Source: a virus. From it: a DNA stretch of 64,000 bases. The notes below the pieces were generated by a model, which saw only the letters and a program-made list of their open reading frames with translations, ran no database searches and was not told the DNA's origin. Below, one piece after another: positions 381-58,521 of this stretch. A program made the translations under genes and the position numbers. The DNA is taken from IMG/VR virus record IMGVR_UViG_3300025131_000006. One strand, written 5' to 3'. Within the stretch, counting starts at the first letter, position 1; each line of letters starts with the position of its first letter.

Positions 381-1634
381 TCAACTGTCGGTGGAGTCTT
401 CCCCAACAAGATATGCCCACTCGCTCCTCTCTCTTCTTTCTTTTTCATGGCTCTCTAGCTCCGGGCGAGTTATGGCTTTTGTCAGTAGCTCGACGAGTTC
501 GTGCGACGATCCTCGTTGCATAACAGTGTCTTCCTCTATGTCTGTGGGGTGGCTCCAAATGTCATACAGAACATCGATGCTGCTTCCATCGCTGACATGC
601 GCAACACAGAATCCTCCGGCCACCAAGTGCATGACCGTCCACCACGTCTGCGAGATCCCCAAGGACTCCGGAGCGGGGATCGCCTCGCGAGTGATAGCAT
701 GGTGTGGGATCACTCCCGGAAATCCCCCTATTATTTTATCCAAGATAATCTCTGGTAATCCTGTGATGTGGCCCAAGATCTCTCGTTGCCATGTGGATCT
801 TGAGGCGATGTCGAAAGACACTTCCCTGAATCCGACGATTTGATAATGTTGGTTGGGGAAGGTGCGGTCTTTGGATTCGGGTGGATGATTGATGCCGTAC
901 TCTTTCCAACCCCAACAATGTGATTCTGTATCTCCTGCCGGGGGAGAGACGCAACCGTCACCAAAGGGTGTCAAGCTCCAGATCCAATCCCCGCGTGTGG
1001 GAATTCCCAACGTGCTGAATAATTGACACGCTTTCCTGCGTAGAGATCCCGGACCCCAACCTCTGGTCGTTCGGGCATAGTCGTACTCTCCTAAGCTCAT
1101 CATGTCCGATAGCCTTGGAGATGGCTTTTTCCCAAAGCCCATGGTTCTCGGAAGACTCAGCCCGTCTTCCGATGCTCCGGCGAATCCTGTTTCTATTCTT
1201 GAATCGGTGCCTGCTCCCATGATGGACAGCCCTGGTCCCGTGGACAAAGACCCCGCAACCAGAGTTCTCGTTGGTTCAGTGACTGAACCGGGAGTCTCCT
1301 CCTCTTCCTCATGGAGGGCTCTTTCGAGTAAAACCCGATCGACAATAGAGCTTATATCGGCCAACATCTTTGGCGTAAAGAGAGCGTCTATCTCGCTGTC
1401 GGGAACGTCTCTTTCTACAACCCCGGACTCCTCCGCGATGCGACGCCGGATCGTCCTGTGGATTGTGTGCAGCAAAGACACGGATTCGCCAACCGAGCTT
1501 ATTCCTAGAAAGGATTCGTCGCCGATAATGATTGTCTCGTCGAGGCTGATCCACCTTTCGGACAGAAGAGCCTCCACGAACTCTTGTCGTTTCTCGCTAT
1601 TGATCAATATCAACAATAGTTCTCGTGCGGTCAT
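381..1634 (-). CDS. hypothetical protein with sub-terminal S[DE]W tag (LESHEKERRERSEW + 11 aa)
   Basis: 452-codon open frame 381-1739; ATG at 1634 preferred as start. Confidence 0.75.
   Translation of the reverse strand: MTARELLLILINSEKRQEFVEALLSERWISLDETIIIGDESFLGISSVGESVSLLHTIHRTIRRRIAEESGVVERDVPDSEIDALFTPKMLADISSIVDRVLLERALHEEEEETPGSVTEPTRTLVAGSLSTGPGLSIMGAGTDSRIETGFAGASEDGLSLPRTMGFGKKPSPRLSDMMSLGEYDYARTTRGWGPGSLRRKACQLFSTLGIPTRGDWIWSLTPFGDGCVSPPAGDTESHCWGWKEYGINHPPESKDRTFPNQHYQIVGFREVSFDIASRSTWQREILGHITGLPEIILDKIIGGFPGVIPHHAITREAIPAPESLGISQTWWTVMHLVAGGFCVAHVSDGSSIDVLYDIWSHPTDIEEDTVMQRGSSHELVELLTKAITRPELESHEKERRERSEWAYLVGEDSTDS
1274..1288. repeat. palindrome GTTYAGTSACTRAAC copy 1 (intragenic)
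   Basis: GTTCAGTGACTGAAC. Confidence 0.9.
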
Positions 1635-1689
1635 GGCTCTACCTGTGCTTGTGGCATTCGGATCTTGGGAGGCTTGGGGGGCCAGGCTC

Positions 1690-2442
1690 TCACCACTCGG
1701 ATCGGGACCGGCGTTCGGCAGCGGCTGCTGCCAGAGCAAGATTCGTCACAGATCCCGACTTCCAAGAGCTAGCGATGGACCTATCCACGAATTCATCGCT
1801 CGCCAATCCTTGGTGGACAGCATACTCCCACAGGTGACTCAACTCCACAGAAACAAACTCCCATGGAGATAGCGTCCGGGTCTCCGAAAATCCGTCTGCT
1901 CTTAAAGGGACCATCGCGATCCCCATTCGATACGGGGCCAATAGTATCTGTGCGTACCCCAATAAGGTGTGTGCTTGGCTCTGCTTTGCGAATCTGATAA
2001 GAAACGCATTTGTCAGGCTGTGATGGTCCAAAGGAAATGGGATCGTGTCCCAAGAGGTCTCTTCTGGGTATGGCCGAAGACTTCCCGCGTGTCTGGGTTC
2101 CATGTTGAATATGTTTCGTAACTCGGCGGAAGCGGTGTCTTGCAGCACTTCGGGAGTCCCGTAGTTGCATATTCCCACCATGTGTGCGACCGGGTCTCGA
2201 TATGGGTCACTGTGACTTCTCCGGAGACCCCGTATGCACAGAACCGCTTTCTTTGTCAAGGAAACGTGTCTGTGGCGAATAAAAATGTCCTCTGTCGCCG
2301 CTTCGAGAGCATCTTTCGCCTTGGTGTTGTGGCGCAAGTAGGGAGCTTCAAGTGCAACCAATCCAGGTGGTGGCGTTAGCTTGCTGTCGTACCACTCGGC
2401 GTATGGATCGGGGGTGACAGCTACATCCGCTGTGCTTATCAT
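1690..2442 (-). CDS. hypothetical protein with C-terminal tag LAAAAAERRSRSEW*
   Basis: ORF; ATGA overlap with the upstream stop, GGAG RBS. Confidence 0.75.
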   Translation of the reverse strand: MISTADVAVTPDPYAEWYDSKLTPPPGLVALEAPYLRHNTKAKDALEAATEDIFIRHRHVSLTKKAVLCIRGLRRSHSDPYRDPVAHMVGICNYGTPEVLQDTASAELRNIFNMEPRHAGSLRPYPEETSWDTIPFPLDHHSLTNAFLIRFAKQSQAHTLLGYAQILLAPYRMGIAMVPLRADGFSETRTLSPWEFVSVELSHLWEYAVHQGLASDEFVDRSIASSWKSGSVTNLALAAAAAERRSRSEW

Positions 2443-3431
2443 GACATGCTCCAATCGCTATTGGTCTTCCGGCGGGCCTCTGCTGCCTCCAAGACCGTTG
2501 CTTTCTTGACCTCTGGCTTCGACGGCAATGTCTCTGTGAATGTCTCTGCGGGCTCCTCTGGGGAGCCCATGACGCTACCTAAGACCGCTAGTCGCTCTTC
2601 TTTGATCTTGCTGTCGGGCACGTACTTCTCTAACCACACGGTCGAGTCACTGTGGGGCAGTGGACGCAGATAAAAGAACGGGTCATGTGCCAAGAACCGA
2701 ATGCTATGAATGTCAATGTCCGGATTTATACGAAAGGCTGTTGAGACTCCTCCGGTCAGCAAGCTCGATGCGATGTACATGCCCAAAGACAAATTCACAG
2801 GTTCTCCGCCCTCTCCACCGCTCCGTCGCAACCTGATGTAGTCGTCGAGAACCACCAACTTGATCCGGTGAGTTTGAGGCAAGAAAGACCACCCGCGTGC
2901 CATGATGTTGGCGATCAGGTATTCGATCTCTCTATCCGTTGCAATGTACAAGCTTCGGAGTGCTGCTTTGAATTTATCTTCTTGCTCTGCGAGGCTGCAT
3001 CCTGTCGGGAGGGAGGTGATCACAATATTCGAGTGATGAATATCCCTGTGGGCCTTGCGGCGATAGACCTCTTTCTCTGATCGTGTCGAGCCGGGAAGAG
3101 GAAGCAGGAACATGTCACCCGGATCTTTTGCGTAAGACGCCTCCAAAGGAGAGAGTTTCCCAGTTGACACGAGCATGCCATCGGACTTCCAAGACTCCCA
3201 TGCCTCTCGGACCTCCTCGATGACTTTTGGGTCCAACAGCCGGGCTTCGTCTATCAGAGCCGGAGCCGTGACACCAGGAGCAACCGCTCTACAGTCGGAG
3301 CACATCCACGTGTACGCACTGATAAGCTCTCGCAAGGTCTCCGTGTGTGCGGGAGGCAGATTCACTCCAACTTGACCCAACTCGCCACTACAGCACCCGC
3401 AATGTACGTTGACAAAGGCTTCGAAGAACAT
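2439..3431 (-). CDS. hypothetical protein, N-terminal Cys (Zn) motifs, sub-terminal tag LEAAEARRKTNSDW+SMS*
   Basis: 330-aa ORF with CGCC and CSDC motifs. Confidence 0.75.
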   Translation of the reverse strand: MFFEAFVNVHCGCCSGELGQVGVNLPPAHTETLRELISAYTWMCSDCRAVAPGVTAPALIDEARLLDPKVIEEVREAWESWKSDGMLVSTGKLSPLEASYAKDPGDMFLLPLPGSTRSEKEVYRRKAHRDIHHSNIVITSLPTGCSLAEQEDKFKAALRSLYIATDREIEYLIANIMARGWSFLPQTHRIKLVVLDDYIRLRRSGGEGGEPVNLSLGMYIASSLLTGGVSTAFRINPDIDIHSIRFLAHDPFFYLRPLPHSDSTVWLEKYVPDSKIKEERLAVLGSVMGSPEEPAETFTETLPSKPEVKKATVLEAAEARRKTNSDWSMS

Positions 3432-3641
3432 GATCCATCCTGTTTTGACAGTCTTACTTTGAGTCCGGTTTTGTGCTGCCCGTGAACTTCTTGTCTGTGT
3501 TCTTGTCTGTGTCTCTCACCACACGCTCCTTCGTCGGCGATCTCTCTCTATCTCGGCAGGAGAAAGTTTCTTTGGTCGGGTTGCTCGCGGAGGAGGTGGA
3601 GTGAACAGAAGCTCTTCGGTCGCAGGCCGTGAGGCTTCTGT

Positions 3642-4025
3642 TCAAATTCTTTCGCGGATCTTCCTTTCCGCATGACCGATTTCGTTGCATAAGTCTCGGT
3701 TGAGGCGTTTCTGTCGAGGGTTCCGGGAGTACTTGAGCAGAGTCTCTGTGTATCGGTCTAAGTCGATGCCATCGTTCAAAAGATCGACGACTTGTTTTAT
3801 CCGCGATCCGGAGCCAAGGAGCAAGACAAGCTCCACATAGCAGAACATGGCCCAACCCTCTTCGGCATCTTTTTCGGATTTTTTGGGGTCGTCCGGGGTG
3901 TGCACGACCAACAGTGTACGAGCCGCACGAGTGGCACTTCCTTTGCTTACATGGAACTCTTCGATGTTGTGGTTTCGAGCCTCCTCTGTGTCGAGGAGAG
4001 GCGATCGCAGTCGATATAAGTTCAT
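3642..4025 (-). CDS. hypothetical protein; frame continues past the TGA to 3516, ending PAEIERDRRRRSVW*
   Basis: ATG at 4025 with CAGGAG RBS; downstream in-frame codons translated by hand. Confidence 0.65.
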   Translation of the reverse strand: MNLYRLRSPLLDTEEARNHNIEEFHVSKGSATRAARTLLVVHTPDDPKKSEKDAEEGWAMFCYVELVLLLGSGSRIKQVVDLLNDGIDLDRYTETLLKYSRNPRQKRLNRDLCNEIGHAERKIRERI

Positions 4026-4045
4026 TTGTCGTTTCTCCTGGAAAT

Positions 4046-4060
4046 GTTCAGTGACTGAAC
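4046..4060. repeat. palindrome copy 2
   Basis: GTTCAGTGACTGAAC, just 5' of the RBS of the gene starting at 4025. Confidence 0.9.
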
Positions 4061-4115
4061 ATCGATTTCGTGTCTTACTTGAATATGCCAAGGGCGATGC
4101 GGATAAATATCTGGA

Positions 4116-6958: not shown

Positions 6959-6977
6959 CTCAACGGCTCCTGGTGTA

Positions 6978-7386: not shown

Positions 7387-7413
7387 TTCATGTGCTGTTG
7401 TCGGATCGCAGCA

Positions 7414-7776
7414 TCACCAATCCGATAAAGCCTTTCGGTTCCTCATCATGGCATCCAATGACAGGCCGGGATACTTGCCCAACACACGCAGCACCATGCG
7501 AGTCGGCTCCAACAAAACACGCAGAAGCATAGCCCGACCCACGTCAAGCTCGCACCTCTCTATTGTCTTTGGATTCGGCTCCACGATCTTTAATGCGATT
7601 CCCGATGTCCGGGTTCTCACACGCTCCATTCGGAGCGTGTACCTGTGAAAAGCTTCTCCCTTGATCGCACCGCCCGGATTCCCGAAGATCGTCCAACTTT
7701 GAAGCGGAGTATTCTCCAACTCAGCCCTCCGGACGATCCAATCCAACCGCCTCACCAATCGCGATAACTTACTCAC
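7414..7776 (-). CDS. hypothetical protein with C-terminal tag LDAMMRNRKALSDW*
   Basis: GTGA overlap with the upstream stop. Confidence 0.7.
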   Translation of the reverse strand: MSKLSRLVRRLDWIVRRAELENTPLQSWTIFGNPGGAIKGEAFHRYTLRMERVRTRTSGIALKIVEPNPKTIERCELDVGRAMLLRVLLEPTRMVLRVLGKYPGLSLDAMMRNRKALSDW

Positions 7777-8714
7777 GACACTGCCTTACCAGGGACACAC
7801 AACTCATACGACTCTTTCAACGCATCCAACCCAACCGCTGCATCCGCGTCGCGAACCACCGACCGATCATGGCTCATCCAAGACCTCACCATGTCCATCT
7901 GGCGTTTGGTCTGCGGCGACTCCGCGTTCGCCATGTACTCATCCACCGACCGACACCACTCCCAATACCCCAACACACCATGCACGATCGATTCTTGACC
8001 CATGTCCTGAATGTCGTTCGCCTCCACACCACACCACCCGGCCATCCACTCCCACAACCACGGACCCGCGTGTCGTTGCAACCAACAACACATCACCGTT
8101 CCTGTTCGACCGTGCCCTCCCCAACAGTGCACATAGATACCCATCCCCAACGCCAACGTCGCGTCCATCACATCCAAGAGCATATTCATCGTCCTGACGT
8201 CCGGAACGCTCATGTCTTTGATCGGCGCATGCACGTTCGAACCACCCACGCGAATGTCACCCGCCTTGCTCCCGTGCAACATTTGCCATGCTGCGGCATA
8301 CGACAAAAACCCGTGATTCTCCCACGTCTTCTCTCCATCCTCTTGCAAGCGAAAGAGCGTATCCACCCCAGACTCTTTCAAGGACCGCAACGCCTCCATC
8401 GCTCGCGGCGACGACACCGCTAGTTTTCTCCCTCGATCCCACGAAGCTCTGCTCTCGTATCCCGGATACGGACCACAGATGATCGGAACGCTCTCCTTCC
8501 CCAATAACGACGCCCCCGCTGACCCCACCCTCGCAACCTCGAACCTCCGAGGCCCATGCGACACCGGAGCCACCACCGACGACAACTGCAACTCCAACTC
8601 CATGTCTCGCACCATCACGAGTTCACCCCATGTCGGGAGATGTTTGCGTCGCGACACCGACAAGTGCATCTCCATCATTGCTTGCTTCGTCTTTGCGTCC
8701 AATCTCTCTTTCAT
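7773..8714 (-). CDS. dual-specificity/protein-tyrosine phosphatase family protein
   Basis: Catalytic loop IYVHCWGGHGRTG (HCx5R); PIKDMSVP general-acid loop; SPQTKRQ Q-loop. Confidence 0.85.
   Translation of the reverse strand: MKERLDAKTKQAMMEMHLSVSRRKHLPTWGELVMVRDMELELQLSSVVAPVSHGPRRFEVARVGSAGASLLGKESVPIICGPYPGYESRASWDRGRKLAVSSPRAMEALRSLKESGVDTLFRLQEDGEKTWENHGFLSYAAAWQMLHGSKAGDIRVGGSNVHAPIKDMSVPDVRTMNMLLDVMDATLALGMGIYVHCWGGHGRTGTVMCCWLQRHAGPWLWEWMAGWCGVEANDIQDMGQESIVHGVLGYWEWCRSVDEYMANAESPQTKRQMDMVRSWMSHDRSVVRDADAAVGLDALKESYELCVPGKAVS
8604..8670. repeat. 67-bp exact repeat, inverted copy of 59998-60064
   Basis: Base-by-base identity; both copies encode MHLSVSRRKHLPTWGELVMVRD. Confidence 0.95.
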
Positions 8715-8906: not shown

Positions 8907-9629
8907 ATGTCAATCACCCACCACCACCACTCCATTCCCCTCGTGTCCATGATAAACATACAAGGCCATACCATCATCATCGCACCCAAGCAAATCGCAC
9001 CCGAACACCTGCTCCACCGACGCGACTCACAAACCCAACTCCCCACCTTCCAATGCATGACACCATCCGGCAACCCACACCAATGCATGTGCCCTCCACA
9101 CGCCATATGCCCCGTACTCATCGCCACCCGTGCCGCCGTCTTGTTCGAACTGCTCCCTCTCGCACAGCAAATCATCATACCCTGGCGTGACTCCACACTC
9201 ACTCGCCGACTCCCACCCGCACAGTTCGCCGCACACCTGAATAATGAAGCCGACCCACACACACGACCCACACAAGAACCATGGACTCCCCCCGACTCCA
9301 TGTCCGAAACACACCGCGAAATACGATCCCTGGAACACATGGCACAACAAGAACAACGCACCGGACGACAAGTCGCCGCATCCATCCACCAAGGCGTACG
9401 ACTCGGCGCCCAAGACACACTCCGACGACTCCGGGCCATCGGACCTTCCCAACAACCCACCGAAACCATACCACGCTTATGGTGCATCTGGATTCCACGC
9501 AACTTCCACGCACACCCCACACCATACCAAGTCTTCCGAGCCAACTACGATGGACTCAATTGGTCCGTACAACAAGGCGCACTACTTCACGTCAAACCCA
9601 CACCACAATGGATCGTCTCCGGATACTAA
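8907..9629 (+). CDS. hypothetical protein
   Basis: 240-aa ORF with GGAGG RBS; lies in strongly C/A-skewed DNA. Confidence 0.5.
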   Translation: MSITHHHHSIPLVSMINIQGHTIIIAPKQIAPEHLLHRRDSQTQLPTFQCMTPSGNPHQCMCPPHAICPVLIATRAAVLFELLPLAQQIIIPWRDSTLTRRLPPAQFAAHLNNEADPHTRPTQEPWTPPDSMSETHREIRSLEHMAQQEQRTGRQVAASIHQGVRLGAQDTLRRLRAIGPSQQPTETIPRLWCIWIPRNFHAHPTPYQVFRANYDGLNWSVQQGALLHVKPTPQWIVSGY

Positions 9630-23267: not shown

Positions 23268-23660
23268 TTACCATTCAGATTTTTTTCTGCGGTCAGCTTC
23301 TTTGGTCGCTAAGGTCTCATTTTTCAGCTTCATTGACTCGGTCCTGTCCTGCACGGGGATTGTGACGAAATAATCCTCTTCCGGTATACCACATGTCTTT
23401 TTCCATGCTCTTATCTGAGCGGCTGTATCCGTGTGAGGTGCGTACCTGTGAATAACAGATAATTCGTCAACGCACGGCAATAACTGTGGATAAGCGAATA
23501 CGATTTTCTGGATTGCTATGTATCTTGCTGCGTCAAGTGTTGCATGGGGGCCTGCCAAGAATCGTATCGCGGCGGCTTGAGTTGATGGACCAGAAAACAT
23601 GTTGGGACTTTTGAATAGAATGCCCAGGACCGTGCGGAAATCGACTTTATATCGGAACAT
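23268..23660 (-). CDS. hypothetical protein with C-terminal tag LATKEADRRKKSEW*
   Basis: 130-aa ORF. Confidence 0.7.
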   Translation of the reverse strand: MFRYKVDFRTVLGILFKSPNMFSGPSTQAAAIRFLAGPHATLDAARYIAIQKIVFAYPQLLPCVDELSVIHRYAPHTDTAAQIRAWKKTCGIPEEDYFVTIPVQDRTESMKLKNETLATKEADRRKKSEW

Positions 23661-26490: not shown

Positions 26491-27069
26491 TTACCAATCG
26501 GATGCTTCTTTCCGGTCTTTCTCAATCTTCGCCAGTTTTTCTATCTCGGCTTCGCGAAAAGGGTCTATCACTTGGAGTTCTCCAAAGGGTCGGTGGACTT
26601 TCACGGTAACGGCAGAGGATGGAACGGATACTCTGCTTCCTATTCGCAGGAAGAGTAATTCTGACTCGTCAACAGTGAAGGGCACGGGTGTCGTACAGAT
26701 CCACATGGTGGACCCATATTTCTCACCTCTTTTGACCACTATTATGTGTCCTGAGACTGTCTGATGCCCAACTATATTCCCTGTTCTTTCTAGGACAAAC
26801 GGGAGCTTCTTGCTCCCGTTGTCAATCACCTTGTAGGTTCCGACATTTTTATCTGGCACTGATTTTGAGTGGACAACGAGGACGGTGTCTCCATTGCTCA
26901 GTTCAAAGTTGTCAGATGCGTGCAGCGGTATGGTTCCTGGTTCAACCCCAATGAGTCGGTTGGGGTCTCCTCCGTGGATGAACGTTAGCTTGTCGAGGTG
27001 GACGATTGAATAGGCGGTGTCCATGTGGGAGATTGTCGTATCCAATTTCTTTGCGAGTATGTCTGCCAT
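26491..27069 (-). CDS. hypothetical beta-rich protein with C-terminal tag LAKIEKDRKEASDW*
   Basis: 192-aa ORF. Confidence 0.75.
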   Translation of the reverse strand: MADILAKKLDTTISHMDTAYSIVHLDKLTFIHGGDPNRLIGVEPGTIPLHASDNFELSNGDTVLVVHSKSVPDKNVGTYKVIDNGSKKLPFVLERTGNIVGHQTVSGHIIVVKRGEKYGSTMWICTTPVPFTVDESELLFLRIGSRVSVPSSAVTVKVHRPFGELQVIDPFREAEIEKLAKIEKDRKEASDW

Positions 27070-30573: not shown

Positions 30574-30593
30574 TTGCATGGTCTTTTTTCAGA

Positions 30594-30637
30594 TTTCAGA
30601 TTTGCACCGCAAAATAGAACGGGAAGAAAGACATTAC
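30594..30637 (+). promoter_or_regulatory. 44-bp conserved upstream element (copy 1)
   Basis: Identical to 40315-40358; variant at 45115-45149; TATAAT at 30671. Confidence 0.7.
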
Positions 30638-30694
30638 GGGGTACTTTGGCACGACCGAAGTGCCTTTTTTTATAATATTCAGGAGAAGAACCCG

Positions 30695-31762
30695 ATGGTT
30701 GAGATGAAAAAAGAGAACAGAGTTGGATTGGAAGAGTGGGACAGGGCTCGTCCGACGGCTCTTGATTACAAGGATCGGATCAAGGGGGCCTTGTGGGGTC
30801 TCGCGGTGGGAGATGCCCTTGGGGCACCGTATGAGTTCGACAGTCGAGATTCGCGTCGTATCGGCAGCTTGGACGTTTCAATGAGTTACGGCACGGGTGG
30901 TACGTGGAATGTCCGCGAGGGGGAGTGGACGGACGACACGGCGATGGCGTTGTGCGGTATCGAGTCTTTGTTGTTGTGGGGAGGGTTGAATCCGGATGAC
31001 TTGCTTCGTCGTTGGGTGGCGTGGTGGAGGAAGGGCTACATGAGTACTCGCGACGAGTGCTTTGACATCGGCACGACGACGTCGAGTGCCTTGTTGGAGT
31101 TCAGGAGGAGAGGCTTGTGGTATGAGGCGGGTCTCCAAAGTGGCGGTTCGGGGAATGGGTCGTTGATGCGGTTGGCTCCCTTTGTGCTTTGGTACGCGGA
31201 GCAGTCGGGCGACGTCGCAGTGGAAGCGGGTCGTATTTCGGGGAGACTGACGCACGGTTCGAGAGATTGCGACGACAGCGTGATGATCATGTCGCTCTTG
31301 ATGGAGGCGTTGGTGTCGGGTGAATACATGACGGGGGCTTTGTTGGAGTTGCCGGATTTGTTGTCGGATTGGGTGGGTGCACCGGGTCTGATGCGATTGT
31401 TGGATGGTTCGGTTATCGCGATGTCGCGGGAGCAAGTGAGGTCGGGCGGTTATTGCGTGGACACGTTGGTGGCAGCGGTGTGGTCGGTGTTGCAGTCCAC
31501 TTCGTTCTCGGAAGCGGTCGTTACGGCGATCCGTTTGGGTGGAGACACGGACACGGTGGCAGCGGTGGTTGGTCAGCTTGCGGGTCTCTTGTACGGGTGT
31601 TCGGGTATTCCCAGGAGGTGGATCGAAGGGTTGCTTTGTTATGATCGTGTGAATGCATACATCAATCGTTTCACGGACGTCGTGATAGAGTTGGGTGAGC
31701 ATGGCGAGACCACGTTCATGCCGCAGTGGATGGGAAGTCGGGTCTATTACGAGGGGCCTTAG
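30695..31762 (+). CDS. ADP-ribosylglycohydrolase (DraG/ARH family)
   Basis: GLAVGDALGAPYEF, GEWTDDT, DIGTTT, GNGSLMRLAP, LTHGS, GGDTDT. Confidence 0.95.
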   Translation: MVEMKKENRVGLEEWDRARPTALDYKDRIKGALWGLAVGDALGAPYEFDSRDSRRIGSLDVSMSYGTGGTWNVREGEWTDDTAMALCGIESLLLWGGLNPDDLLRRWVAWWRKGYMSTRDECFDIGTTTSSALLEFRRRGLWYEAGLQSGGSGNGSLMRLAPFVLWYAEQSGDVAVEAGRISGRLTHGSRDCDDSVMIMSLLMEALVSGEYMTGALLELPDLLSDWVGAPGLMRLLDGSVIAMSREQVRSGGYCVDTLVAAVWSVLQSTSFSEAVVTAIRLGGDTDTVAAVVGQLAGLLYGCSGIPRRWIEGLLCYDRVNAYINRFTDVVIELGEHGETTFMPQWMGSRVYYEGP

Positions 31763-32446: not shown

Positions 32447-33373
32447 ATGAGCTTTATAGACAAGCCGATTCAATGGGACATGTCGAAAGACGACGCGGCA
32501 AAATCAATCCACGAGAGGTTCCGCAATCGTCAGTTTTGGTTGGAGGTTGTGTGTGAGACGCCCTTAGAAGGGGCGGACTACCCGAAGATGCTTGATGTTG
32601 CCCGTGACAAGGCACGTCGAGTGGACGTGCCACGATCGTCGGATGAGTTTCTTGATGAGATTCGCACTTCTCGACCCCGTAAGCTCTGCGTGTTCAAGGG
32701 TTTCAAGAAAGGCCCGTACACGTGGTGGGCGGCGATCGTGGAGTTCGGCGATCCGACGATTCGAAGAATGCTTCGTTCGCGAGTCGAAAAGTCCGAAGAC
32801 GATTTGGTTCCGGGGGTTGAAGAGCGTCGGGTTTACGCACTCTTTAACGGTTGGACGTCAAGGCGTGGCACGGAGGCTGTCTTGGTGGATTACTCTGGTT
32901 CGAGCGAGATTATGGGAAAAACCCATACGGTGACGGATGCCCGCGAGTTCATGCAGTACATGCTGGATGCTCGCGTGGGAGACCGCGTGACGGACGGTTA
33001 CGGACCATCTTTTGAGTTGGAAGACATTGATCTTGGCTCGTCGGAGTTGCCTCGCATCGAGGGATTGCCTCCGGTTGTTCCGAGAGAACGTAAGCCGACA
33101 GGACGCAAGTCTTGGGAAGAGGAGCATCGACCGTGGGAGGACGAAGAGGAAGACGATGACGACATGGAAGTCTTGTCTCGACGCCCCCGAACGGAGTCGA
33201 GATCCGATAGAGAAGAGAGCAGCGGGTTCGAAGAACACAAACGTCGAAAAGCGACGGAAGATTCGAAGGGATCGGATTTTTGGGGTCGCACCGAGCCAGA
33301 GGGTGCCCCTGATGCGGGAGTTACCGACCTGGAAAAAGCGGCTCGTAATCGCAGAAAGTCTTCGGATTGGTAA
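32447..33373 (+). CDS. hypothetical protein with C-terminal tag LEKAARNRRKSSDW*
   Basis: ORF with GAGG RBS; acidic disordered linker before the tag. Confidence 0.8.
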   Translation: MSFIDKPIQWDMSKDDAAKSIHERFRNRQFWLEVVCETPLEGADYPKMLDVARDKARRVDVPRSSDEFLDEIRTSRPRKLCVFKGFKKGPYTWWAAIVEFGDPTIRRMLRSRVEKSEDDLVPGVEERRVYALFNGWTSRRGTEAVLVDYSGSSEIMGKTHTVTDAREFMQYMLDARVGDRVTDGYGPSFELEDIDLGSSELPRIEGLPPVVPRERKPTGRKSWEEEHRPWEDEEEDDDDMEVLSRRPRTESRSDREESSGFEEHKRRKATEDSKGSDFWGRTEPEGAPDAGVTDLEKAARNRRKSSDW

Positions 33374-40314: not shown

Positions 40315-40358
40315 TTTCAGATTTGCACCGCAAAATAGAACGGGAAGAAAGACATTAC
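40315..40358 (+). promoter_or_regulatory. 44-bp conserved upstream element (copy 2)
   Basis: Identical to 30594-30637; follows a palindrome copy. Confidence 0.7.
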
Positions 40359-40454
40359 AGGGCGAAGTGCGAGAAAATGGGATGAATCGAAAATTCCATG
40401 TCGTGTTTCGTCACGATTTAGCTATATGTTTTTTAGAAGAAACAGGGTGCCAAG

Positions 40455-41060
40455 ATGCCAAGAACAAAGACGCCGCACCTCGAAAGTCACATTTACGGTG
40501 TTCAAAAGATGGGAGCCAGGGAAGGTATGGATATTGAACGCATGAGAGTTCTGGGGTATTCGGTTCATCCCGGTGCCATTATGCAGCTTCACAACAAAGG
40601 AAAGCCGTGGAGGATTTACTTGACTTGCACGACGGGTGGGTCAAATAAGTTTTGGGAGGCGTGGTGGGAGGGAGTCGGGTTTACGCCGAAGAGTCGGTAT
40701 GGAGCCATCGGAACGAATGGTCGGACTTCGGAAAGAGCGGCTCTTTGGTGTGCCCGAAAGGCTCAAGAGAAAGCAACGAGTGTACGGTCACAGTACGTGA
40801 GACCGGAAGGAAGCCTCTCTTCTAGGGGTGCTATCAAGTGGCTAGAAGACCATTTGGACCCGTTAGGTGCGATGAGGTTATCCACGCCGGGATCGACAAC
40901 TCCGGAAGCCCCTCCAACGGAGACCGATACGACCGCTGAGACTAAGACCGCACCGCGACGAAAGACTCGGCGTAAAAAATCCCCTCGCCCCAAGGTGAAG
41001 TCAAAGCCTAAGAGCTTGTCTGAAATCGCCCAAGCGAGAAGAAAAAGCAGCGATTGGTAG
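40455..41060 (+). CDS. WGR-like domain protein with C-terminal tag LSEIAQARRKSSDW*
   Basis: YLTCTTGGSNKFWE...RYGAIGTNG...EK pattern typical of WGR domains. Confidence 0.7.
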   Translation: MPRTKTPHLESHIYGVQKMGAREGMDIERMRVLGYSVHPGAIMQLHNKGKPWRIYLTCTTGGSNKFWEAWWEGVGFTPKSRYGAIGTNGRTSERAALWCARKAQEKATSVRSQYVRPEGSLSSRGAIKWLEDHLDPLGAMRLSTPGSTTPEAPPTETDTTAETKTAPRRKTRRKKSPRPKVKSKPKSLSEIAQARRKSSDW

Positions 41061-41061
41061 A

Positions 41062-41592
41062 ATGTTTACAAAAAGCCCACAATGTCTGGACTCCTTTGAA
41101 GATGCATTGGAGTCAATGCGGAATTATAGAGCGTGGCGGGTGCGTCTTGAGAAAGATGGTCTTGTTATTGAGTTTTGGGCGTACCCTTCGGCCTTTAATA
41201 ATGTGTATCTTCGGAAGTGCGAAGTGTTGGAACTCAGGGACTGTAGAGAGTGTACCTCTGTTACCCTGAATTATATGTTGGATCGCGTTCCGGGGTACTT
41301 GGATGCAGGGTTCCTCATCTGTAGATCTCCAGGAGTTTTGGAAGCTCCATCGAATGCGGACTTCTCGTGGTCGGAGTCGGTGATGATTCCGACAAAATAC
41401 AGAGGGCATCCTCCTGTGGCCCCTTTTCCTTCGGCTATCAGGAGACCGAGAGTGCCATCGAGTAAAGCCTCTTATCGAAGTAAGAGGGCTCCTCGGAAAA
41501 AGAAGAAAGTGGATAATAGTAGCCAGATCACCATTGAAGAGCATGGATTGGCAAGTATCGCTGCCAAGCGGAAAAAGAATAGCGATTGGTAG
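41062..41592 (+). CDS. hypothetical protein with C-terminal tag LASIAAKRKKNSDW*
   Basis: 176-aa ORF. Confidence 0.75.
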   Translation: MFTKSPQCLDSFEDALESMRNYRAWRVRLEKDGLVIEFWAYPSAFNNVYLRKCEVLELRDCRECTSVTLNYMLDRVPGYLDAGFLICRSPGVLEAPSNADFSWSESVMIPTKYRGHPPVAPFPSAIRRPRVPSSKASYRSKRAPRKKKKVDNSSQITIEEHGLASIAAKRKKNSDW

Positions 41593-45090: not shown

Positions 45091-45114
45091 ACGGCATTGT
45101 CGATATACAGGGGG

Positions 45115-45149
45115 TGCACCTCAAAATAGATTGACAAGAAAGACATTAC
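45115..45149 (+). promoter_or_regulatory. variant copy of the upstream element carrying TTGACA
   Basis: TGCACCTCAAAATAGATTGACAAGAAAGACATTAC versus TGCACCGCAAAATAGAACGGGAAGAAAGACATTAC. Confidence 0.6.
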
Positions 45150-45255
45150 AGAGTGAATGTATGCGGAGCCCGGAAGACCGGGCTCCGTTTTTGTGCATCG
45201 TGACAAAATTGGTCACGAAAGCCACACAGATCAAAACAAAACAGAGGTAACGGGC

Positions 45256-47957: not shown

Positions 47958-49226
47958 ATGACCTTTTTCGAAGTTGACATTGATGCGGGGAAAGCCCGTG
48001 CGGACAAATGGACCTCCGATTCGTCTTCCGACGGTGGTGGTGGTGGTGGTGGTGACTTTACCCCCACGATCTGGGTGAAATTGGGCGACGGGCAAACGTT
48101 GGAGATGCGTGTGATGCCTCCGTGGACGGATAAAGGCCCGAATGGTTTGGTTCCGTACTGCGAGAGCTTCACGCATTGGAAGTGCGGCCCGGACGGAAAC
48201 AAACAGTGCATCTGCCCCCGCAAGCTGCGTCGGGCACAGAACGACATCGTGTCCGAGATGTCAGAAGATCGCAAAGCTCGCTTGGGCCTCTCGGACTATG
48301 ACGTCACGCAGGAAGATCCGTGCTATATCTGCGAGGAGTTGGACAAGAAGTTCGCGACAGGAGCCAAAGCTGACAAGGACTTCGCGATGCGTCGCATCGG
48401 AAAGCGCGGCCTCTTGTTTCAAGTGCTGGACCTGCAAGACCCCGTGTGGACCGGCTCTGAGCCGCAACTTTCGGATAAGCCGGAGAAGGCGGAAGAGCTT
48501 CGCGGCAAGCCCAAGATCAAGATGCTTCGGTTGTCGCCGCATAACGGCGGCATGCGTTTGGTCAACATCTTGAACGACCCCGGCACGTATGGTCTCGTGA
48601 CTCACCCGTACGAGGGCACCGGACTCAAGCTCTCTCGCACCGGCTCCGGATTCAACGACACCGAGTACCACGTTGAGCCCCTGCTGCGGGATCTCGCTGT
48701 GGTGCGTGGACCCCTCTTTTCCACGCCTTCGGGTGAGCCCGATAAGGAGCGAATCATCCAAGCGTTGGAGGCGATGGTGGACATCGACTCTCATCCGTTT
48801 TTTCGCTCGGTGAGCTACGAGTACACTCGTGCCATTTGGATGGGTATCGACCCCAAGACCTTGGAGGAAGGCAAGGGCTCCGGTGGCTCTTCCGGTGGCT
48901 CTGGGCATGGTCGTGCCGCATCCCCCGCATCCCCCGATGGCTCCTTCGCTGCGTGGAAAGAGTACGGTGAGCGACACCGTAGTTTGACCGCTTCGGAGCT
49001 TGCCAACGAGAGCGGATGGCAGGAGTCTCAGGTGCCGAAGTGTTACAGCAACCGACCCGATCACAACATCCAAGACTGCCGTGAGTGCCCCATTCGCGGG
49101 TTCTGCGCGGCTCGTCATAAGTCCACTTCGGGCAAGTGGTCCCTGAGTGAGCCCACTCCGTCGGCTCCGTCCGTTCCGATGGGGCGATCGGCACCTCCTC
49201 CGACAGACGAAGACATTCCGTTCTAG
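47958..49226 (+). CDS. gp32-like single-stranded DNA-binding protein with DEDIPF tail
   Basis: MRVMPP...H...CP...CYICE pattern; bacterial SSB-type acidic C-terminus. Confidence 0.75.
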   Translation: MTFFEVDIDAGKARADKWTSDSSSDGGGGGGGDFTPTIWVKLGDGQTLEMRVMPPWTDKGPNGLVPYCESFTHWKCGPDGNKQCICPRKLRRAQNDIVSEMSEDRKARLGLSDYDVTQEDPCYICEELDKKFATGAKADKDFAMRRIGKRGLLFQVLDLQDPVWTGSEPQLSDKPEKAEELRGKPKIKMLRLSPHNGGMRLVNILNDPGTYGLVTHPYEGTGLKLSRTGSGFNDTEYHVEPLLRDLAVVRGPLFSTPSGEPDKERIIQALEAMVDIDSHPFFRSVSYEYTRAIWMGIDPKTLEEGKGSGGSSGGSGHGRAASPASPDGSFAAWKEYGERHRSLTASELANESGWQESQVPKCYSNRPDHNIQDCRECPIRGFCAARHKSTSGKWSLSEPTPSAPSVPMGRSAPPPTDEDIPF

Positions 49227-50226: not shown

Positions 50227-53200
50227 ATGAGCAACCGAGTTCTCGTTTTTTCCGACTTGCAAGCACACACGCATCATGCGTACGCAAGGTCATTGCCGAA
50301 TGGCCGGAATACCCGACTCAAGGCAGCGACGGACTGCTTGAAGTATATCATCGACTTTGCAAGGGAGAACCGGATTCGGGATGTGGTCTTCTGCGGGGAT
50401 CTCTTCGAGACCAAGAATCGAATCCCGATGGTTGTTCTCCAAGAAGTGTGCGAATTGATCGTTGATTCGGTGGTTCACGGGTTGCGTTGGTTTATGATCC
50501 CAGGGAACCATGACTATGCAGTGCGTAACGGAGAGGTCCACGCCTTGGCGTTATTGCGTGGGCACGAGGACATTTACATTTTTGATGAGGATTGGTCGCG
50601 TGTTCCATTTCATAACTTTGGGGCATCCTTGGACAGTTCCATGTCCGCACGAGGGGGCGTGCCGACCTTGATCCACACGGTCAAATATGCAGAGAAATTA
50701 CCAGTAGAGGTGTTCGATGTGGAGCCGGACGAGGGCTCTCTGCGGGTATTGTTGGCTCATGGTTATGTGGAGGGCATGTGCGACTTCCCCCACGACTTCC
50801 CGGAAGACGAGATGGCCCAAGACGGGGAGTGGATACGAAGAGCGTGGCTCCGAGGCTTCGACGCGGCTCTGGTGGGTCACTACCACAAGCCAATGGTTGA
50901 GAACATTCACGGGTGCCAGGTTATTGTTCCGGGTTGCCCGTATCAAGAGAAGTCCGACGCTATGGGCCAAGAGCGAGGGTTCTTTGTTTGGGACTTGGAC
51001 AGTCGGGAGGCAACGAAGCATGTGATCCCGGAGAGCGTGGCACCGAGATTTGTGAAAGTGTCCATTGGGGCCGATGGTGTTGTGGAAGAGGAGGTCGCGT
51101 CCAACAGCATTGTATTATTGGAGCCTGCGGTAAGAGGGGTGCCTGCGGATGTGATTAAGCAAGCTCGTCAGAGCCTGATGGCTTCGGGTGCCTCGTACGT
51201 AGAGCCCCTGACGTTGCCACGCACTCCGGTCGTCCGGGTGGAGCGTCCAGCGATCGAGGTCGGCACCCGAAGTACACCGTTGAGTGTGTTAAAGCGTGTC
51301 CTTCGTTCGGATGCTATCGACCTGCGGGGGTGTTCTCTGCGTGAGTTGGAGCGAAAGGCTTCGGCTATTATCGCGGAGCATGGGCTCTTGCGAAAAGGGG
51401 CAAAGGGTGGATCTCCTGTGGTGGAGATGTATTTGAGTGCGCGAGATGCGTTTGCATTCGGTCGGGTTGATGTGGAGTTGACCGACCAGGGCTTGCTTGG
51501 AGTGGGGGGTGTCAACATGGAGACTTCTCAGGCGAGCAGCAATGGTGCGGGGAAGTCCACGCTTCCGGATGTGGTGTCGTTAGTCTTGTTTGGGAAGTCT
51601 CTGCGAAATGTGCGGGCAGATGAAACGATCCGCCGGGGAGCACGATCGTATCGAGGCATGATTCGGTTTGCGACATCCGATGGCAAGCGATACGAGATCT
51701 TTCGTTGCAGAAAAGACAAAGAGTTCGGGGGCGGGCTGTTCTTCCGGAAGGGATGGGGTGAGTACGACTTGGAGGAATTTGAACTTCCAGGAAAAGACGT
51801 CGATATGCGCGGAGGAGAGGGGAAGGAGACGCAGGATCATATCTCAGCGTCGCTCAGTATGGGGTTCGGGTTGTTCCGTGCCTTAGTTCTGTTGGGAGAA
51901 GGTGGAGACTTTCGGTTTGCAGCGTTGGGAGATTCGGCAAAAAAAGATGTCTTGTCAGATATTCTGGGGGTGTCGTTCTATGATGATCTCGCCAAAAACG
52001 CTCGGTCTCTTGCGAACACTCTGAGCGACGAGCAGGACAAATTGGAAGCAGAAGCAGGAGTACTGCTTTCGGAGAAGGAGGACGCAAACCGCGAGTGGCA
52101 TGTCGTGCAAGAGTCATTGGTGCGTTGGGAGAGAAAGCACCTGTATGAGATCCAAGGTGCCGAGGAGACTTTGGTTGCCGCACAAAAGGTTTTGCGACTC
52201 GCAGACGAAAAAATCATTGCACCGGCAGCGGGAAGTTCAGTGACTGAACTGAAAGATACGCGGGTTCGTGTTCTGGAATTCCGGGAATTGCTCGAACAAG
52301 CCAGAGAGGACCATGCAGGTCTCTTGGAGGAAGCGAACGAGAGTGCTCTTGCTTCTCAATCCAAGGTTGTCGGCCTGTTGTCGGATGTTCGATCGGTCGA
52401 GGCCCAATTGAAAGATCGGCGTGACTTGATCGCTCGTGGGAGGTGCGGAGAGTGCGGGCAAATCGTGACGGAAGATGTCTGCGAAGGCAAACTCTCCGAG
52501 TTAGAGGGACGCTTGGCAGAGTTGCAGGAAGATCTCCATGTTGCCAAAGGTCGAAAGTCCAGTTTGTCCGCGATCTACAACGATAGGCTTGTCTCCAGCA
52601 CAGGGGATACCTCAGAATTGGAAGAGACCTTGGGAGGGTTTCGGGCGAGAGTCGAGGAATTGGAGGCCGACGGTTTGTTGATCGCACAGGCGAAAGACCG
52701 GCGTGCTCAAGCTGCTCGCTTGCACGGGATACGCAGAGATGAGGTCGAGCGTTTGAAAGCCGAGGCGAATCCACACACAGGAGAGAGCGAAAGGCTCGTA
52801 GGGAGATCGGCCCGGTTGGTGACCGAGCGGGACATAAAGTTGCGAGAGCAGGCGTCGAAGCACTTGGACATGCTGCACTACAAAGTCCTCGCGGATGCGT
52901 TCGGACCCAAAGGGGCTCGATCAATGCTGTTTGACGAACTGATGCCGCAGTTGAACGATCGTTTGGAGTTATACTCCGACCTTTTTTGCGGGGGGTATAT
53001 TCGAATATCGGTGCAGTCGCAGTCTGAAACTGCCAGGGGAAAGGTGCAAGAGAAGATTGGGCTTGTGGTGGACTTCCCATCCGGTTCGTGTTCTTATGGC
53101 TCATGCAGTGCAGGAGAGAAGAGGCGAGTGGATTTGCCTGTTCTGTTTGCTCTCCAAGACGTCGCTGCTGCTTACGGTGTGGGGTTGGGCTTCTGCTTTT

Positions 53201-53421
53201 TGGACGAAGCGTTCGAGAATGTGGACGCAGCGGGCAAGGTTGGACTGATGGACCTGCTCTCCGAGGTGTCGGGTCGATCGCACACTTCCACGGTCTTTGT
53301 CGTCACTCACGATGAGGACTTGTTGGGATTGTTCGATCCGGTGATGTGGTGTTATCGTGTAGGCGGGCGAACGAGCTTGTTTTTCGGAACATCGACTGCC
53401 CCAACAGAAGTGCCTGCTTGA
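50227..53421 (+). CDS. Mre11(SbcD)-Rad50(SbcC) fusion nuclease/ATPase
   Basis: SDLQ, GDLF, PGNHD, AHG, GHYH; NGAGKS, coiled coil, CGEC Zn hook, CSAGE signature, LDEAFENVD, VVTH. Confidence 0.93.
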   Translation: MSNRVLVFSDLQAHTHHAYARSLPNGRNTRLKAATDCLKYIIDFARENRIRDVVFCGDLFETKNRIPMVVLQEVCELIVDSVVHGLRWFMIPGNHDYAVRNGEVHALALLRGHEDIYIFDEDWSRVPFHNFGASLDSSMSARGGVPTLIHTVKYAEKLPVEVFDVEPDEGSLRVLLAHGYVEGMCDFPHDFPEDEMAQDGEWIRRAWLRGFDAALVGHYHKPMVENIHGCQVIVPGCPYQEKSDAMGQERGFFVWDLDSREATKHVIPESVAPRFVKVSIGADGVVEEEVASNSIVLLEPAVRGVPADVIKQARQSLMASGASYVEPLTLPRTPVVRVERPAIEVGTRSTPLSVLKRVLRSDAIDLRGCSLRELERKASAIIAEHGLLRKGAKGGSPVVEMYLSARDAFAFGRVDVELTDQGLLGVGGVNMETSQASSNGAGKSTLPDVVSLVLFGKSLRNVRADETIRRGARSYRGMIRFATSDGKRYEIFRCRKDKEFGGGLFFRKGWGEYDLEEFELPGKDVDMRGGEGKETQDHISASLSMGFGLFRALVLLGEGGDFRFAALGDSAKKDVLSDILGVSFYDDLAKNARSLANTLSDEQDKLEAEAGVLLSEKEDANREWHVVQESLVRWERKHLYEIQGAEETLVAAQKVLRLADEKIIAPAAGSSVTELKDTRVRVLEFRELLEQAREDHAGLLEEANESALASQSKVVGLLSDVRSVEAQLKDRRDLIARGRCGECGQIVTEDVCEGKLSELEGRLAELQEDLHVAKGRKSSLSAIYNDRLVSSTGDTSELEETLGGFRARVEELEADGLLIAQAKDRRAQAARLHGIRRDEVERLKAEANPHTGESERLVGRSARLVTERDIKLREQASKHLDMLHYKVLADAFGPKGARSMLFDELMPQLNDRLELYSDLFCGGYIRISVQSQSETARGKVQEKIGLVVDFPSGSCSYGSCSAGEKRRVDLPVLFALQDVAAAYGVGLGFCFLDEAFENVDAAGKVGLMDLLSEVSGRSHTSTVFVVTHDEDLLGLFDPVMWCYRVGGRTSLFFGTSTAPTEVPA
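52235..52249. repeat. palindrome copy 19 (intragenic)
   Basis: GTTCAGTGACTGAAC within the Rad50 coiled-coil coding region. Confidence 0.9.
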
Positions 53422-53451
53422 GAACGAGAGCCAAAGGGAGAACGGACGAAG

Positions 53452-53913
53452 ATGGGAATGATCAAAATCACAGACATCCTCTGTATTATGGAAATACCTG
53501 CTCTGACTAAAAAGGGGGATGAGTGGACCTTGCATGGGTCTGACTTCTCAGAGGGTTCGATGGGTCGGGTAGAAGAGGTCTTGGGGCGAACAGGAGGCAA
53601 GACACGTGTTCGCATGATTGTCTTGAAGGGTTCTGTTTTGTACCAGAATACAGCAGAGGACCAGATGGTGTTGGAGAGAAGTGAGGGGGCGGACGGGTAT
53701 CGTCAGTTGGCTCGCGATGCGATGGCTGTACGATCCGAGATGGCTCGCGAGGCTCCTCCTCAGTCGTCGGGCTCATCGTCCGCTCCAGCTACGGGTGCAG
53801 CGGTCCTTCAGAATTTGGGGATGCTGGATCAGCAGGGGAATGTTGTTCCTGATGGCTCCAGGAGAAGTATGGGGGTTATGTCAAAGTCCCAATACAACAA
53901 GGGTCGGCAATAA
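53452..53913 (+). CDS. hypothetical protein
   Basis: 153-aa ORF. Confidence 0.6.
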   Translation: MGMIKITDILCIMEIPALTKKGDEWTLHGSDFSEGSMGRVEEVLGRTGGKTRVRMIVLKGSVLYQNTAEDQMVLERSEGADGYRQLARDAMAVRSEMAREAPPQSSGSSSAPATGAAVLQNLGMLDQQGNVVPDGSRRSMGVMSKSQYNKGRQ

Positions 53914-53969
53914 TTATTCCCTAAGTGGGTTCGTCCGTGGTACTATTTGTTCTTTTTGAGGAGGAGTGA

Positions 53970-54533
53970 ATGGGACTGTTCCGACGATCGTCGCAACCTA
54001 TCGTGCGATTGGATATTCCAATTACGCCGATCCCCAAAGGAAGACCTCGTTTCTCCAGGAGGGGTTCGCGGACATACACACCCGCTCGAACTTTGGATTA
54101 TGAGAAGGCTCTTCGTGCAGAGGTTGTAAAGGGCTTGTCAGACCAGGCGGATGAGTTCCCGGTGTATCCAAAAGGGGTGCATGTTCGAATCATGGTGGAT
54201 TTTATCTTCGAGAGGCCAAAAACGAAGTCTCGAAAGAAAGACCCTGACGGGTTATTGTGGCGTATCGGGAGAGAGGATGGGGATAATCTTGAAAAAGCGG
54301 TCCTCGACGCCCTAAAAGGCGTTCTGTGGCATGATGACAACCAAGTTGTCTCTGTGACATGGCGAAAGATGTACGCACCCAAAAGAACTCCATGCTCTGA
54401 GCATGGAACTTTAATGGGGGAGGCTCGCGGTCCTCGTGTTTGCATATACACGCGGGCTGTGACAGAATGTCCTGTGCAACGCACCTGTAGTTTCGGTGCT
54501 TTACTCCCGTTCGAGGATTATGAAGATGAGTAA
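53970..54533 (+). CDS. rusA: RusA-family Holliday junction resolvase
   Basis: PIPKGRPRF...YTP; DGDNLEKAVLDAL...W.DD.QV. Confidence 0.92.
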   Translation: MGLFRRSSQPIVRLDIPITPIPKGRPRFSRRGSRTYTPARTLDYEKALRAEVVKGLSDQADEFPVYPKGVHVRIMVDFIFERPKTKSRKKDPDGLLWRIGREDGDNLEKAVLDALKGVLWHDDNQVVSVTWRKMYAPKRTPCSEHGTLMGEARGPRVCIYTRAVTECPVQRTCSFGALLPFEDYEDE

Positions 54534-54694
54534 AAAGCAGGAGCCGTCCGCAGACAGACCTGTGATAGTGGAGTCCACTCCTGATCCCGGATACAAGGCC
54601 CCTGCGGGTCCAATGATACCCAAGTGCACCAAGTGTCGTCGTCAACTGACAGACTGTGAGTGCAGTTACAATAGCCTGAAAAAATAGAGACAGG

Positions 54695-56416: not shown

Positions 56417-56418
56417 AA

Positions 56419-56433
56419 GTTCAGTGACTGAAC
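56419..56433. repeat. palindrome copy 20
   Basis: GTTCAGTGACTGAAC after the terminase stop. Confidence 0.9.
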
Positions 56434-56532
56434 GCGGGAGTTGGGTTCTTGCTATTATCTGGTTCGGCTTATTACACGGCTCAAGCATTACTGACGCGCC
56501 GTATTTTACGCATCCTTTGCTGCGGGCACCCC

Positions 56533-56784
56533 ATGTTTCAAGAGGACATCTTTTCGCACCTTCCGCATGCGGAGACGACGGATTCGACATCGAAGCCTTT
56601 TGGGTTTAGCGAAATTCATCTATTCTGTGGCTCTTGTGGTCACGAGATTCGATTGGATTGTCTGATCTCAGGCACAGCAGACCAGGCGTGGCCTTACGTT
56701 GAAGCTGATCATTTTGCGAACGCCGTGTCTCGCAAGCGAAACAAGAAAGACAGAGAGGAAGGAGAAGCCGATGCCGATTTATGA
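56533..56784 (+). CDS. hypothetical protein
   Basis: Short ORF with CGSC. Confidence 0.4.
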   Translation: MFQEDIFSHLPHAETTDSTSKPFGFSEIHLFCGSCGHEIRLDCLISGTADQAWPYVEADHFANAVSRKRNKKDREEGEADADL

Positions 56785-57064
56785 GAGGTCTCCCGTGGGA
56801 CTCACCGGAGCAGAGTACAATTCGTTCAACGAAGAGACCGGAGAGTCTGTGTTTATCGCGGTGCAGCCGGAGGACGTCTTGGGGCACCTTGCTCGCGGAT
56901 GCACGATCGCTGAGATCCAGAAATCGATTCAAGCTCCCCGCGAGGTCATTGAGCATGTGATCATGCAGATTCCTGTGATGGTTGCATGGAGAGAGCAGCA
57001 GGCCGAGCAAGCGTCGAATGTTCAAAGGTTGCCGGAAGTTTCTTCTGTGCCAATGGGGGAGTAA
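56771..57064 (+). CDS. hypothetical protein
   Basis: AGGAG RBS. Confidence 0.55.
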   Translation: MPIYERSPVGLTGAEYNSFNEETGESVFIAVQPEDVLGHLARGCTIAEIQKSIQAPREVIEHVIMQIPVMVAWREQQAEQASNVQRLPEVSSVPMGE

Positions 57065-57074
57065 CGTGTCTCGC

Positions 57075-57539
57075 ATGGGAATAAGTCAAGCACGGGTCGC
57101 TTTGTTGGGGTCTGGTCCTTCGGAGTGGAGGGAGATGTTGATCCATCAGATCAACAGTACGTATATACGGGAGTATTCATCCGGAGACGATGTCAGCCCG
57201 GTGATGTTTTTGTTACCGACCCATCCTTCTCGGATGGAAAAATTCCCGTCAGATATGGACGATCGGTACCAAGAGGCGATTGTTGGCCAGGAGCAGCTTT
57301 TGGCAGCACGATCTGATTTGGTCGTGTTTGCAAATGACGGGTCTTGGAATCAAACCAAACATCGGCACTTGGATCGATTACTGCGCCAAGTAGGGGGCGT
57401 GATAATCTGGAATCCACCGGGCGTAGAGGACGCACCTCCGTCGGAGACAAAGCCAGGTGTTGTGACGGTTTCCGGTGGAGTTCCGAGCTTGGTGTATACC
57501 ATTTTCTACCTGCTCTTGGTTCAGGCTCGTTCGTCGTAG
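57075..57539 (+). CDS. hypothetical protein
   Basis: ORF in the plus-strand gene run. Confidence 0.55.
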   Translation: MGISQARVALLGSGPSEWREMLIHQINSTYIREYSSGDDVSPVMFLLPTHPSRMEKFPSDMDDRYQEAIVGQEQLLAARSDLVVFANDGSWNQTKHRHLDRLLRQVGGVIIWNPPGVEDAPPSETKPGVVTVSGGVPSLVYTIFYLLLVQARSS

Positions 57540-57618
57540 TTGTTTGGGGCTGTGCTTATATATGGGAGGAAACCAACCATATAGGTGCAATCGATGAAGG
57601 ACGAAAAGAAAAGAGAGA

Positions 57619-58521
57619 GTGACCTTTCCCATGCCCCCCGTTCGAGCCAGGCCAGGAGCAGCCGCTGCTGCGTTTGGTGCAATGCGTGGCGTGTCTGTTG
57701 AAGAGATGGAGAGGATGATCACAGAGGAAGACCTCGACGAGATAGAACGGAAGTCCGTCTCTAGACGATCAGCCCCTTATGCTCCAAGGACTTATCCGAC
57801 CTTTAAGTCGGTCAAACCAAGAAGTCCGGAGACAGGATTGCGGCGATTGAGAGAGGCCGAGATTGGTTCGGAAACAACGAGAGTTCTAGGAGCGGCAAAA
57901 GAAGATCTCTCGGAGATGATTTCGATTCACTTTCCAGTAAAGGGTGCTTCGACTATTGGCGGTATCTCATCTCCGGATGCACCTTGGTCTATCGAGATAG
58001 AGGCATCTACGATGCACGACTTTGAGTTGCGGGTCGTAATGCCTGTGTCTCAAGCATTCTTTGCGGATGGGCGGGTGATCCCGTGGACCCTGCGTGGGCT
58101 TCATTCGTGGAGTTCTTTGGGTTCTTTGCCGGAAGGCGTCCCAATCCCGGCGAGACAGTTTTATTGTAGATCTCTCGCTCACCCACGCGATTTGTTTTCG
58201 TCATGGGGGATGGATGCGGAGATGAGCTTGGGCTTAATGCCAGGGGAGTTTTGGATCTCAAATGGCGGAGTTTGGGTGTGGATATATAGTGCTTGGGTTC
58301 GTCTTTTGGATGTGGGGTCGTCTGATCTAAATGCACTTCGTCACAAAATAGGAGGGGCCGAACGAAGAGCCGTTCATGCTATGTCGTCAACAGATATGCC
58401 TATGTCGAGCCTGGAGTTTGAGCCTATCGTTATGGGTCGTGGTATAGTAGTCGAGAGTGACGTGGACACAGAGGCGTTGGAGAGAGCATCTTCTCAGCGA
58501 AAAAAAGAGAGTGATTGGTGA
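57619..58521 (+). CDS. hypothetical protein with C-terminal tag LERASSQRKKESDW*
   Basis: 300-aa ORF. Confidence 0.75.
   Translation: MTFPMPPVRARPGAAAAAFGAMRGVSVEEMERMITEEDLDEIERKSVSRRSAPYAPRTYPTFKSVKPRSPETGLRRLREAEIGSETTRVLGAAKEDLSEMISIHFPVKGASTIGGISSPDAPWSIEIEASTMHDFELRVVMPVSQAFFADGRVIPWTLRGLHSWSSLGSLPEGVPIPARQFYCRSLAHPRDLFSSWGMDAEMSLGLMPGEFWISNGGVWVWIYSAWVRLLDVGSSDLNALRHKIGGAERRAVHAMSSTDMPMSSLEFEPIVMGRGIVVESDVDTEALERASSQRKKESDW

Follow-up and report, generated by a model that had tools for sequence, protein, structure and literature searches.

How does it come about that ten proteins of one phage, with bodies that bear no resemblance to one another, carry the same short peptide at or near their C-termini, and what might this peptide do? 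The question is raised by a stretch of 64 kb (hereafter the window) of a ~160.6-kb phage contig from marine metagenomes, which encodes a gpA-type terminase, helicases, a primase, RecA, an SbcD-SbcC fusion, a CobS/CobT-like pair and a class II reductase. The closest terminase of a cultured phage stands at ~30%, and full-length matches to RecA (44-52%) are spread over many phyla, with no host singled out. The 1064-aa SbcD-SbcC fusion (50227-53421) recurs in the relative L194 (4988-8155) and is found as separate genes in G001, G003, G004 and G005. A 48-nt promoter-like repeat (30594-30641, 40315-40362 and 45106-45153) sits upstream of an ADP-ribosylglycohydrolase operon, the operon of the WGR-like protein of Table 1 and a sigma-like gene, while an identical 67-nt stretch occurs in inverted orientation at 8604-8670 and 59998-60064, in frame in the N-terminus of a dual-specificity phosphatase and in a DUF7694 gene.

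When all six frames of the window were scanned with L-x6-R-[RK]-x2-S-[DE]-W, exactly 10 matches were obtained, at the very ORFs that a preliminary description of this DNA had listed (Table 1); eight lie immediately 5' of the stop codon, one 3 aa and one 11 aa before it. In 300 codon shuffles the mean was 0.03 matches and the maximum 1, S-[DE]-W-stop was observed 8 times against 0.6 in the shuffles, and leave-one-out profile scores of the tags ranged from 14 to 35 bits, with a shuffle maximum of ~13 bits. Three further tagged genes past the left edge, namely the 358-aa ORF that begins in the window and two more behind it (247 and 135 aa, L005 12187-14402), bring this genome to at least 13, so that the left operon has a run of six consecutive tagged genes and, after a TGA, a degenerate copy of the tag. 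This copy is probably a decaying tail, read-through of the TGA being conceivable; no strain variant at this TGA was seen in four runs, all of the same strain. For the last tagged ORF, the database gene call is 296 aa with a start at 57631.

Table 1. Tagged genes of the window and other features discussed in the text (window coordinates unless another contig is named).
Position	Strand	Feature	Remark
1..256	-	358-aa ORF	5' part in window; ends in tag outside (L005 12187-14402)
381..1634	-	417-aa ORF, no family match	tag 417-458, 11 aa before stop
1690..2442	-	250-aa ORF	terminal tag 1693-1734
2439..3431	-	330-aa ORF	tag 2451-2492, 3 aa before stop
3516..4025	-	127-aa ORF (3642-4025) and in-frame tail behind TGA	Pro-rich linker, degenerate tag 3519-3560
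7414..7776	-	120-aa ORF directly behind dual-specificity phosphatase	terminal tag 7417-7458
8907..9629	+	gene X, unannotated family	~150 aa, three invariant Cys, 37 members
23268..23660	-	130-aa ORF	terminal tag 23271-23312
26491..27069	-	192-aa ORF	terminal tag 26494-26535
32447..33373	+	308-aa ORF before helicase	tag 33329-33370; predicted helix, long low-confidence linker before it
40455..41060	+	201-aa WGR-like protein	tag 41016-41057
41062..41592	+	176-aa ORF directly before CobS-like AAA+ gene	tag 41548-41589
57619..58521	+	~300-aa ORF after terminase	tag 58477-58518
~67,400-86,300		Gly-Phe-Gly motif region	L228 9210-18460, L229 13719-18094

It could be supposed that the carriers are paralogues with a larger common C-terminal domain, but once the tags are cut off no pair of window carriers is significantly similar (best E 0.036), in agreement with the earlier impression of unrelated bodies. 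None belongs to a significant Pfam or PHROG family, five of them have no NCBIfam match, many tagged proteins are of low complexity, and the 330-aa ORF has no relative among 1.84 billion representatives. The WGR-like domain of the 201-aa protein is a weak Pfam match (E 0.0014 for its orthologue), and a homolog search with this protein returned only itself. That several tagged bodies are WGR paralogues is unsupported by profile and pairwise comparison; the profiles of the families of this protein and of the 308-aa ORF, both shallow, do not match each other. The tag itself had no match among PDB sequences or, in the tag region, among curated NCBIfam and Pfam models (a stretch of 14 residues may fall below what such models can score); atlas searches with the tag or gene X gave no usable match, cultured phages none to the WGR-like protein or gene X, and in the literature no description of the motif or of such a tag was found. 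Recent DNA copying as the means of its spread is ruled out: the conserved Ser is encoded by mixed codons in the window, and synonymous codon sharing is at chance (138 versus 122, 62 versus 58 and 16 versus 15 expected), which therefore indicates, as had been proposed, that selection acts on the peptide rather than on a DNA repeat. The polar linker noticed earlier was likewise recovered, the 30 aa upstream of the tag being poorer in order-promoting residues (0.25 versus 0.32, p 5e-6). In an AlphaFold model of the 308-aa protein, of low confidence (pLDDT 48), residues 290-306 form a helix that follows a disordered stretch; a fold search with this model, which is too poor to use, gave WGR rows at Z ~3.

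A comparison of 37 tags from 8 phages, for which W14, R8 and S/A/T at position 12 were selection criteria, yields the core consensus hydrophobic1-x6-R8-x3-[SAT]12-x-W14. Trp14 and a small residue at position 12 occur in all 37, R8 in 35 (Lys in the other 2) and L, F, V, M or I at position 1 in ~31; on a helix, positions 1, 5, 8 and 12 would share one face. Other parts of the original wording need revision. An acidic-Trp anchor is not general, since 12 of the 37 tags have K, R, I, V or P at position 13 and 11 have Ala at position 12; neither is the helix strictly basic, as net charge spans -2 to +6. Of the 37 tags, 35 are C-terminal, some of them followed by 2, 3 or 11 aa, but two relatives, L194 and L196, possess a second copy that is internal or N-terminal, and a free C-terminus is therefore not needed. 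In two relatives the gene in the region after the terminase is doubly tagged, and at the other extreme tagged microproteins of only 47-69 aa exist.

The tag extends well beyond this genome, being present in nine relatives (G001, L194, L196, G004, G006, L224, L226, G008 and L237) with terminase identities of 39-58% where measured, from each of the two main branches of the terminase tree; G008 and L237, which carry 4 copies and 1 copy, lay outside the profile-building set. Three genomes have 12, 9 and 5 terminal R-x3-[SAT]-x-W matches against 0.22, 0.08 and 0.23 expected, and 1.2 Mb of unrelated phage loci have no terminal match, so that the motif scan against shuffles and across related phages, called for at the outset, found enrichment in the window and tags in the relatives too. 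In G001 (144 kb, terminase 51%) ten C-termini are tagged, among them those of the orthologues of the 308-aa ORF, whose same-place genes are tagged in five other relatives, and of the WGR-like protein, which in L227 is untagged; the blank from an HMM search that used the ten window tags on G001 was a false negative, real tags having been missed. The earlier remark that no replication or metabolic enzyme is tagged has to be qualified, because a methyltransferase of G001 carries a tag variant and enzymes are thus not excluded. Each genome has its own tag dialect, with greater similarity within than between genomes (31.7 versus 23.2, reached in 0 of 5000 permutations), partly owing to ancestry and to three G001 paralogues; such likeness is expected if the tags track a lineage-specific partner. 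These paralogues (L033 4851-6353) stand in tandem, with a Ser-Lys-Trp dialect of their own. No tag was found at any gene end of G003 (161 kb, estimated 68% complete), nor above threshold in the DNA seen of G005, L198, L225 and L227. Tag-bearing genomes have 49-59% G+C, and most tag-less ones are below 46%. In conclusion, the motif is real, family-wide and previously undescribed.

As to its function, we favour, at a probability of roughly one half, a docking helix by which accessory proteins are brought to a common partner inside the cell. The helix face formed by the hydrophobic residue at position 1, Arg8 and the small residue at position 12 would, together with Trp14, fit a groove on one and the same partner in the infected cell, which could be a hub that the phage encodes or a complex of the host; as the tag would be carried on a flexible linker, any accessory protein gaining it would be brought to this partner. 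We infer the helical binding mode, the one common partner and the action during infection from the features given above. The shared receptor of the preliminary description is kept in so far as it relied on a peptide motif, unrelated bodies, a polar linker and tagged orthologues, and is given up in its wording as a basic, acidic-Trp, terminal signal. A close parallel is offered by T4, in which gp33 and gp55 dock on the gp45 clamp via a shared C-terminal motif (LDFL), likewise a short motif by which unrelated phage proteins dock on one hub (PMC9690074). However, the tag differs in sequence from LDFL, T4 has two or three clients where here there are 13, and these are accessory proteins rather than a polymerase or sigma factor, with a hub that is here only presumed.

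Another possibility, which the preliminary description had also raised, is that the tag is a head-loading signal, its helix binding the procapsid interior or the scaffold so that tagged proteins are packaged and injected. We consider this unlikely, although T4 internal proteins are encoded away from the head genes, so that gene position does not exclude packaging. The T4 capsid-targeting signal is N-terminal and cleaved, whereas the tag is mostly C-terminal and is absent from head genes. What the two have in common is that diverse proteins, in T4 the internal proteins, share only a short peptide (PMC3012670), and the low complexity of many tagged proteins would suit this role. Another likeness is found in phage 80alpha, whose scaffold and the SaPI protein CpmB both end in a helix and hook of 16 residues that includes an essential Arg, that is, different proteins with a helix of about the same length (~14-16 residues) and an upstream Leu (PMC5644958). 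The invariant Arg has its counterpart in R8; yet in 80alpha the scaffold itself carries the helix-and-hook, with RIIK, whereas here the scaffold, protease and capsid lack the tag, which ends in small-x-Trp. Indeed, in the ~97 kb of the 160.6-kb genome that were read, on the right side to ~88,800, no head gene is tagged: not the portal, head protease, putative scaffold (assigned from its place between protease and capsid), major capsid, decoration protein or neighbouring large proteins, and the portal-to-decoration genes score below 11 bits with the tag profile. The 192-aa tagged protein has a weak match (E 0.008) to a PHROG also matched by the head-decoration gene, but the two proteins do not align. 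Portal-region proteins contain another motif, Gly-Phe-Gly-hydrophobic-x-x-Lys, of which a variant stands at the N-terminus of the major capsid protein; it is likely a separate head-targeting or cleavage signal and fits such a role better than the tag, all of which weakens the packaging proposal.

Less probable still is a signal for proteolysis or remodelling, recognised by a protease of the host or by the CobS/CobT-like AAA+/VWA pair of the phage, and timing the removal of early proteins. An exposed tail on a disordered linker would be suited to this, both the window and G004 have a tagged gene ahead of the AAA+ gene, and S-x-hydrophobic-COOH resembles a class I PDZ ligand; more generally, bacterial SSB-Ct, class I PDZ ligands and C-terminal degrons also present a terminal aromatic anchor after a linker. 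These, however, need a free C-terminus, and SSB-Ct is acidic, whereas the tag tolerates both the extensions of 2-11 aa and the internal positions in L194 and L196, on which grounds membership among degrons or PDZ ligands is rejected. Position 13, often basic, cannot be a ligand of the VWA metal site, and recognition by the AAA+/VWA pair, put forward earlier, loses ground because G003 keeps the pair and has no tags in its 161 kb. A gp32-like protein (window 47958-49226, L194 1139-2323, L196 1055-2293) ends in an acidic Ile/Val-Pro-Phe tail resembling the bacterial SSB tail, a second, known docking tail in these phages. Taken together, the tag appears to work like the T4 clamp tail and resembles the 80alpha helix-and-hook in shape, but it is a member of neither, nor of the T4 capsid-targeting or free-terminus signals.

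A nucleic-acid-binding tail that ties proteins to phage DNA or to a 3-kb palindrome lattice is very improbable: the Arg/Lys-rich character of the tag with its terminal Trp, the WGR-like nature of some bodies and the palindromes just upstream of four tagged genes, the cryptic one included, are offset by a net charge of zero or below in 9 of 34 tags, by tags in genomes with no repeated palindrome (G004, L224 and L226) and by the lattice in genomes with no tag (G003, L198 and L227), and the lattice is independent of the tag. The 15-bp palindrome, GTTYAGTSACTRAAC, occurs in ~21 copies ~3 kb apart (window 1274-62712), some inside genes; relatives have palindromes of their own (~28 copies in G001, 52 in G003, 4-5 in L194, L196, L198 and L227), and a ParB-like gene lies ~1 kb past the right end of the window. 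Equally remote is a role in modification (phosphorylation of Ser or ADP-ribosylation of Arg), in membrane anchoring or, as a peptide, in translation termination, for although R-x-x-x-S resembles basophilic kinase sites and the window encodes a dual-specificity phosphatase (7773-8714) and an ADP-ribosylglycohydrolase (30578-31762), the frequent Ala at position 12, a hydrophobic moment of 0.23 and a mean hydrophobicity of -0.52, low for a membrane helix, and the internal copies argue against these roles in turn; Arg modification of the tag is conceivable. A docking helix for one partner thus accounts for these features better than does a role in degradation, modification, membrane anchoring or DNA binding.

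For the partner of this docking helix, gene X and a host protein are about equally likely. The G+C split between tag-bearing and tag-less genomes hints at a possible partner of host origin. Gene X is a weak candidate for the reader by gene neighbourhood: it stands divergent from the main tagged operon of the window, gene-content comparison places it in the window, G001 and G004, and in six relatives a tagged gene follows directly downstream of it, which is probably one inherited arrangement. In two low-G+C phages gene X has no tag nearby (20 kb of L225 and 8 kb of L227), and it was not found in G003, whose incompleteness means that absence is no proof. A complex prediction of gene X in its G001 form with the tag alignment, run without controls, scored 0.00 and leaves its standing as reader unchanged, and fold searches with its model (pLDDT 82) gave no clear match, the best being DapF-like at Z 6.6. 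At the place taken by gene X and a tagged gene in other relatives, G003 has, before the helicase (L199 5434-9983), genes that by eye resemble a ThiF, JAB and ubiquitin-like cassette. We venture, as a rather doubtful extension, that the phage may possess its own peptide address system, in which gene X as reader would bind the tag and bring together 5-14 accessory proteins, a set that varies, as a single complex; reader and tag would drift jointly within each lineage, in parallel to a separate head-targeting code.

Short linear motifs are well known in eukaryotic viruses and, to our knowledge, few have been described in phages, where the docking tails that we know of have two or three client proteins. 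In the present case a single motif is borne by no fewer than 13 proteins of one genome and is maintained across a wide family of uncultured phages. The identity of its partner could place dozens of proteins annotated with no function in one pathway, and a portable 14-residue tag could serve as a protein-targeting tool.
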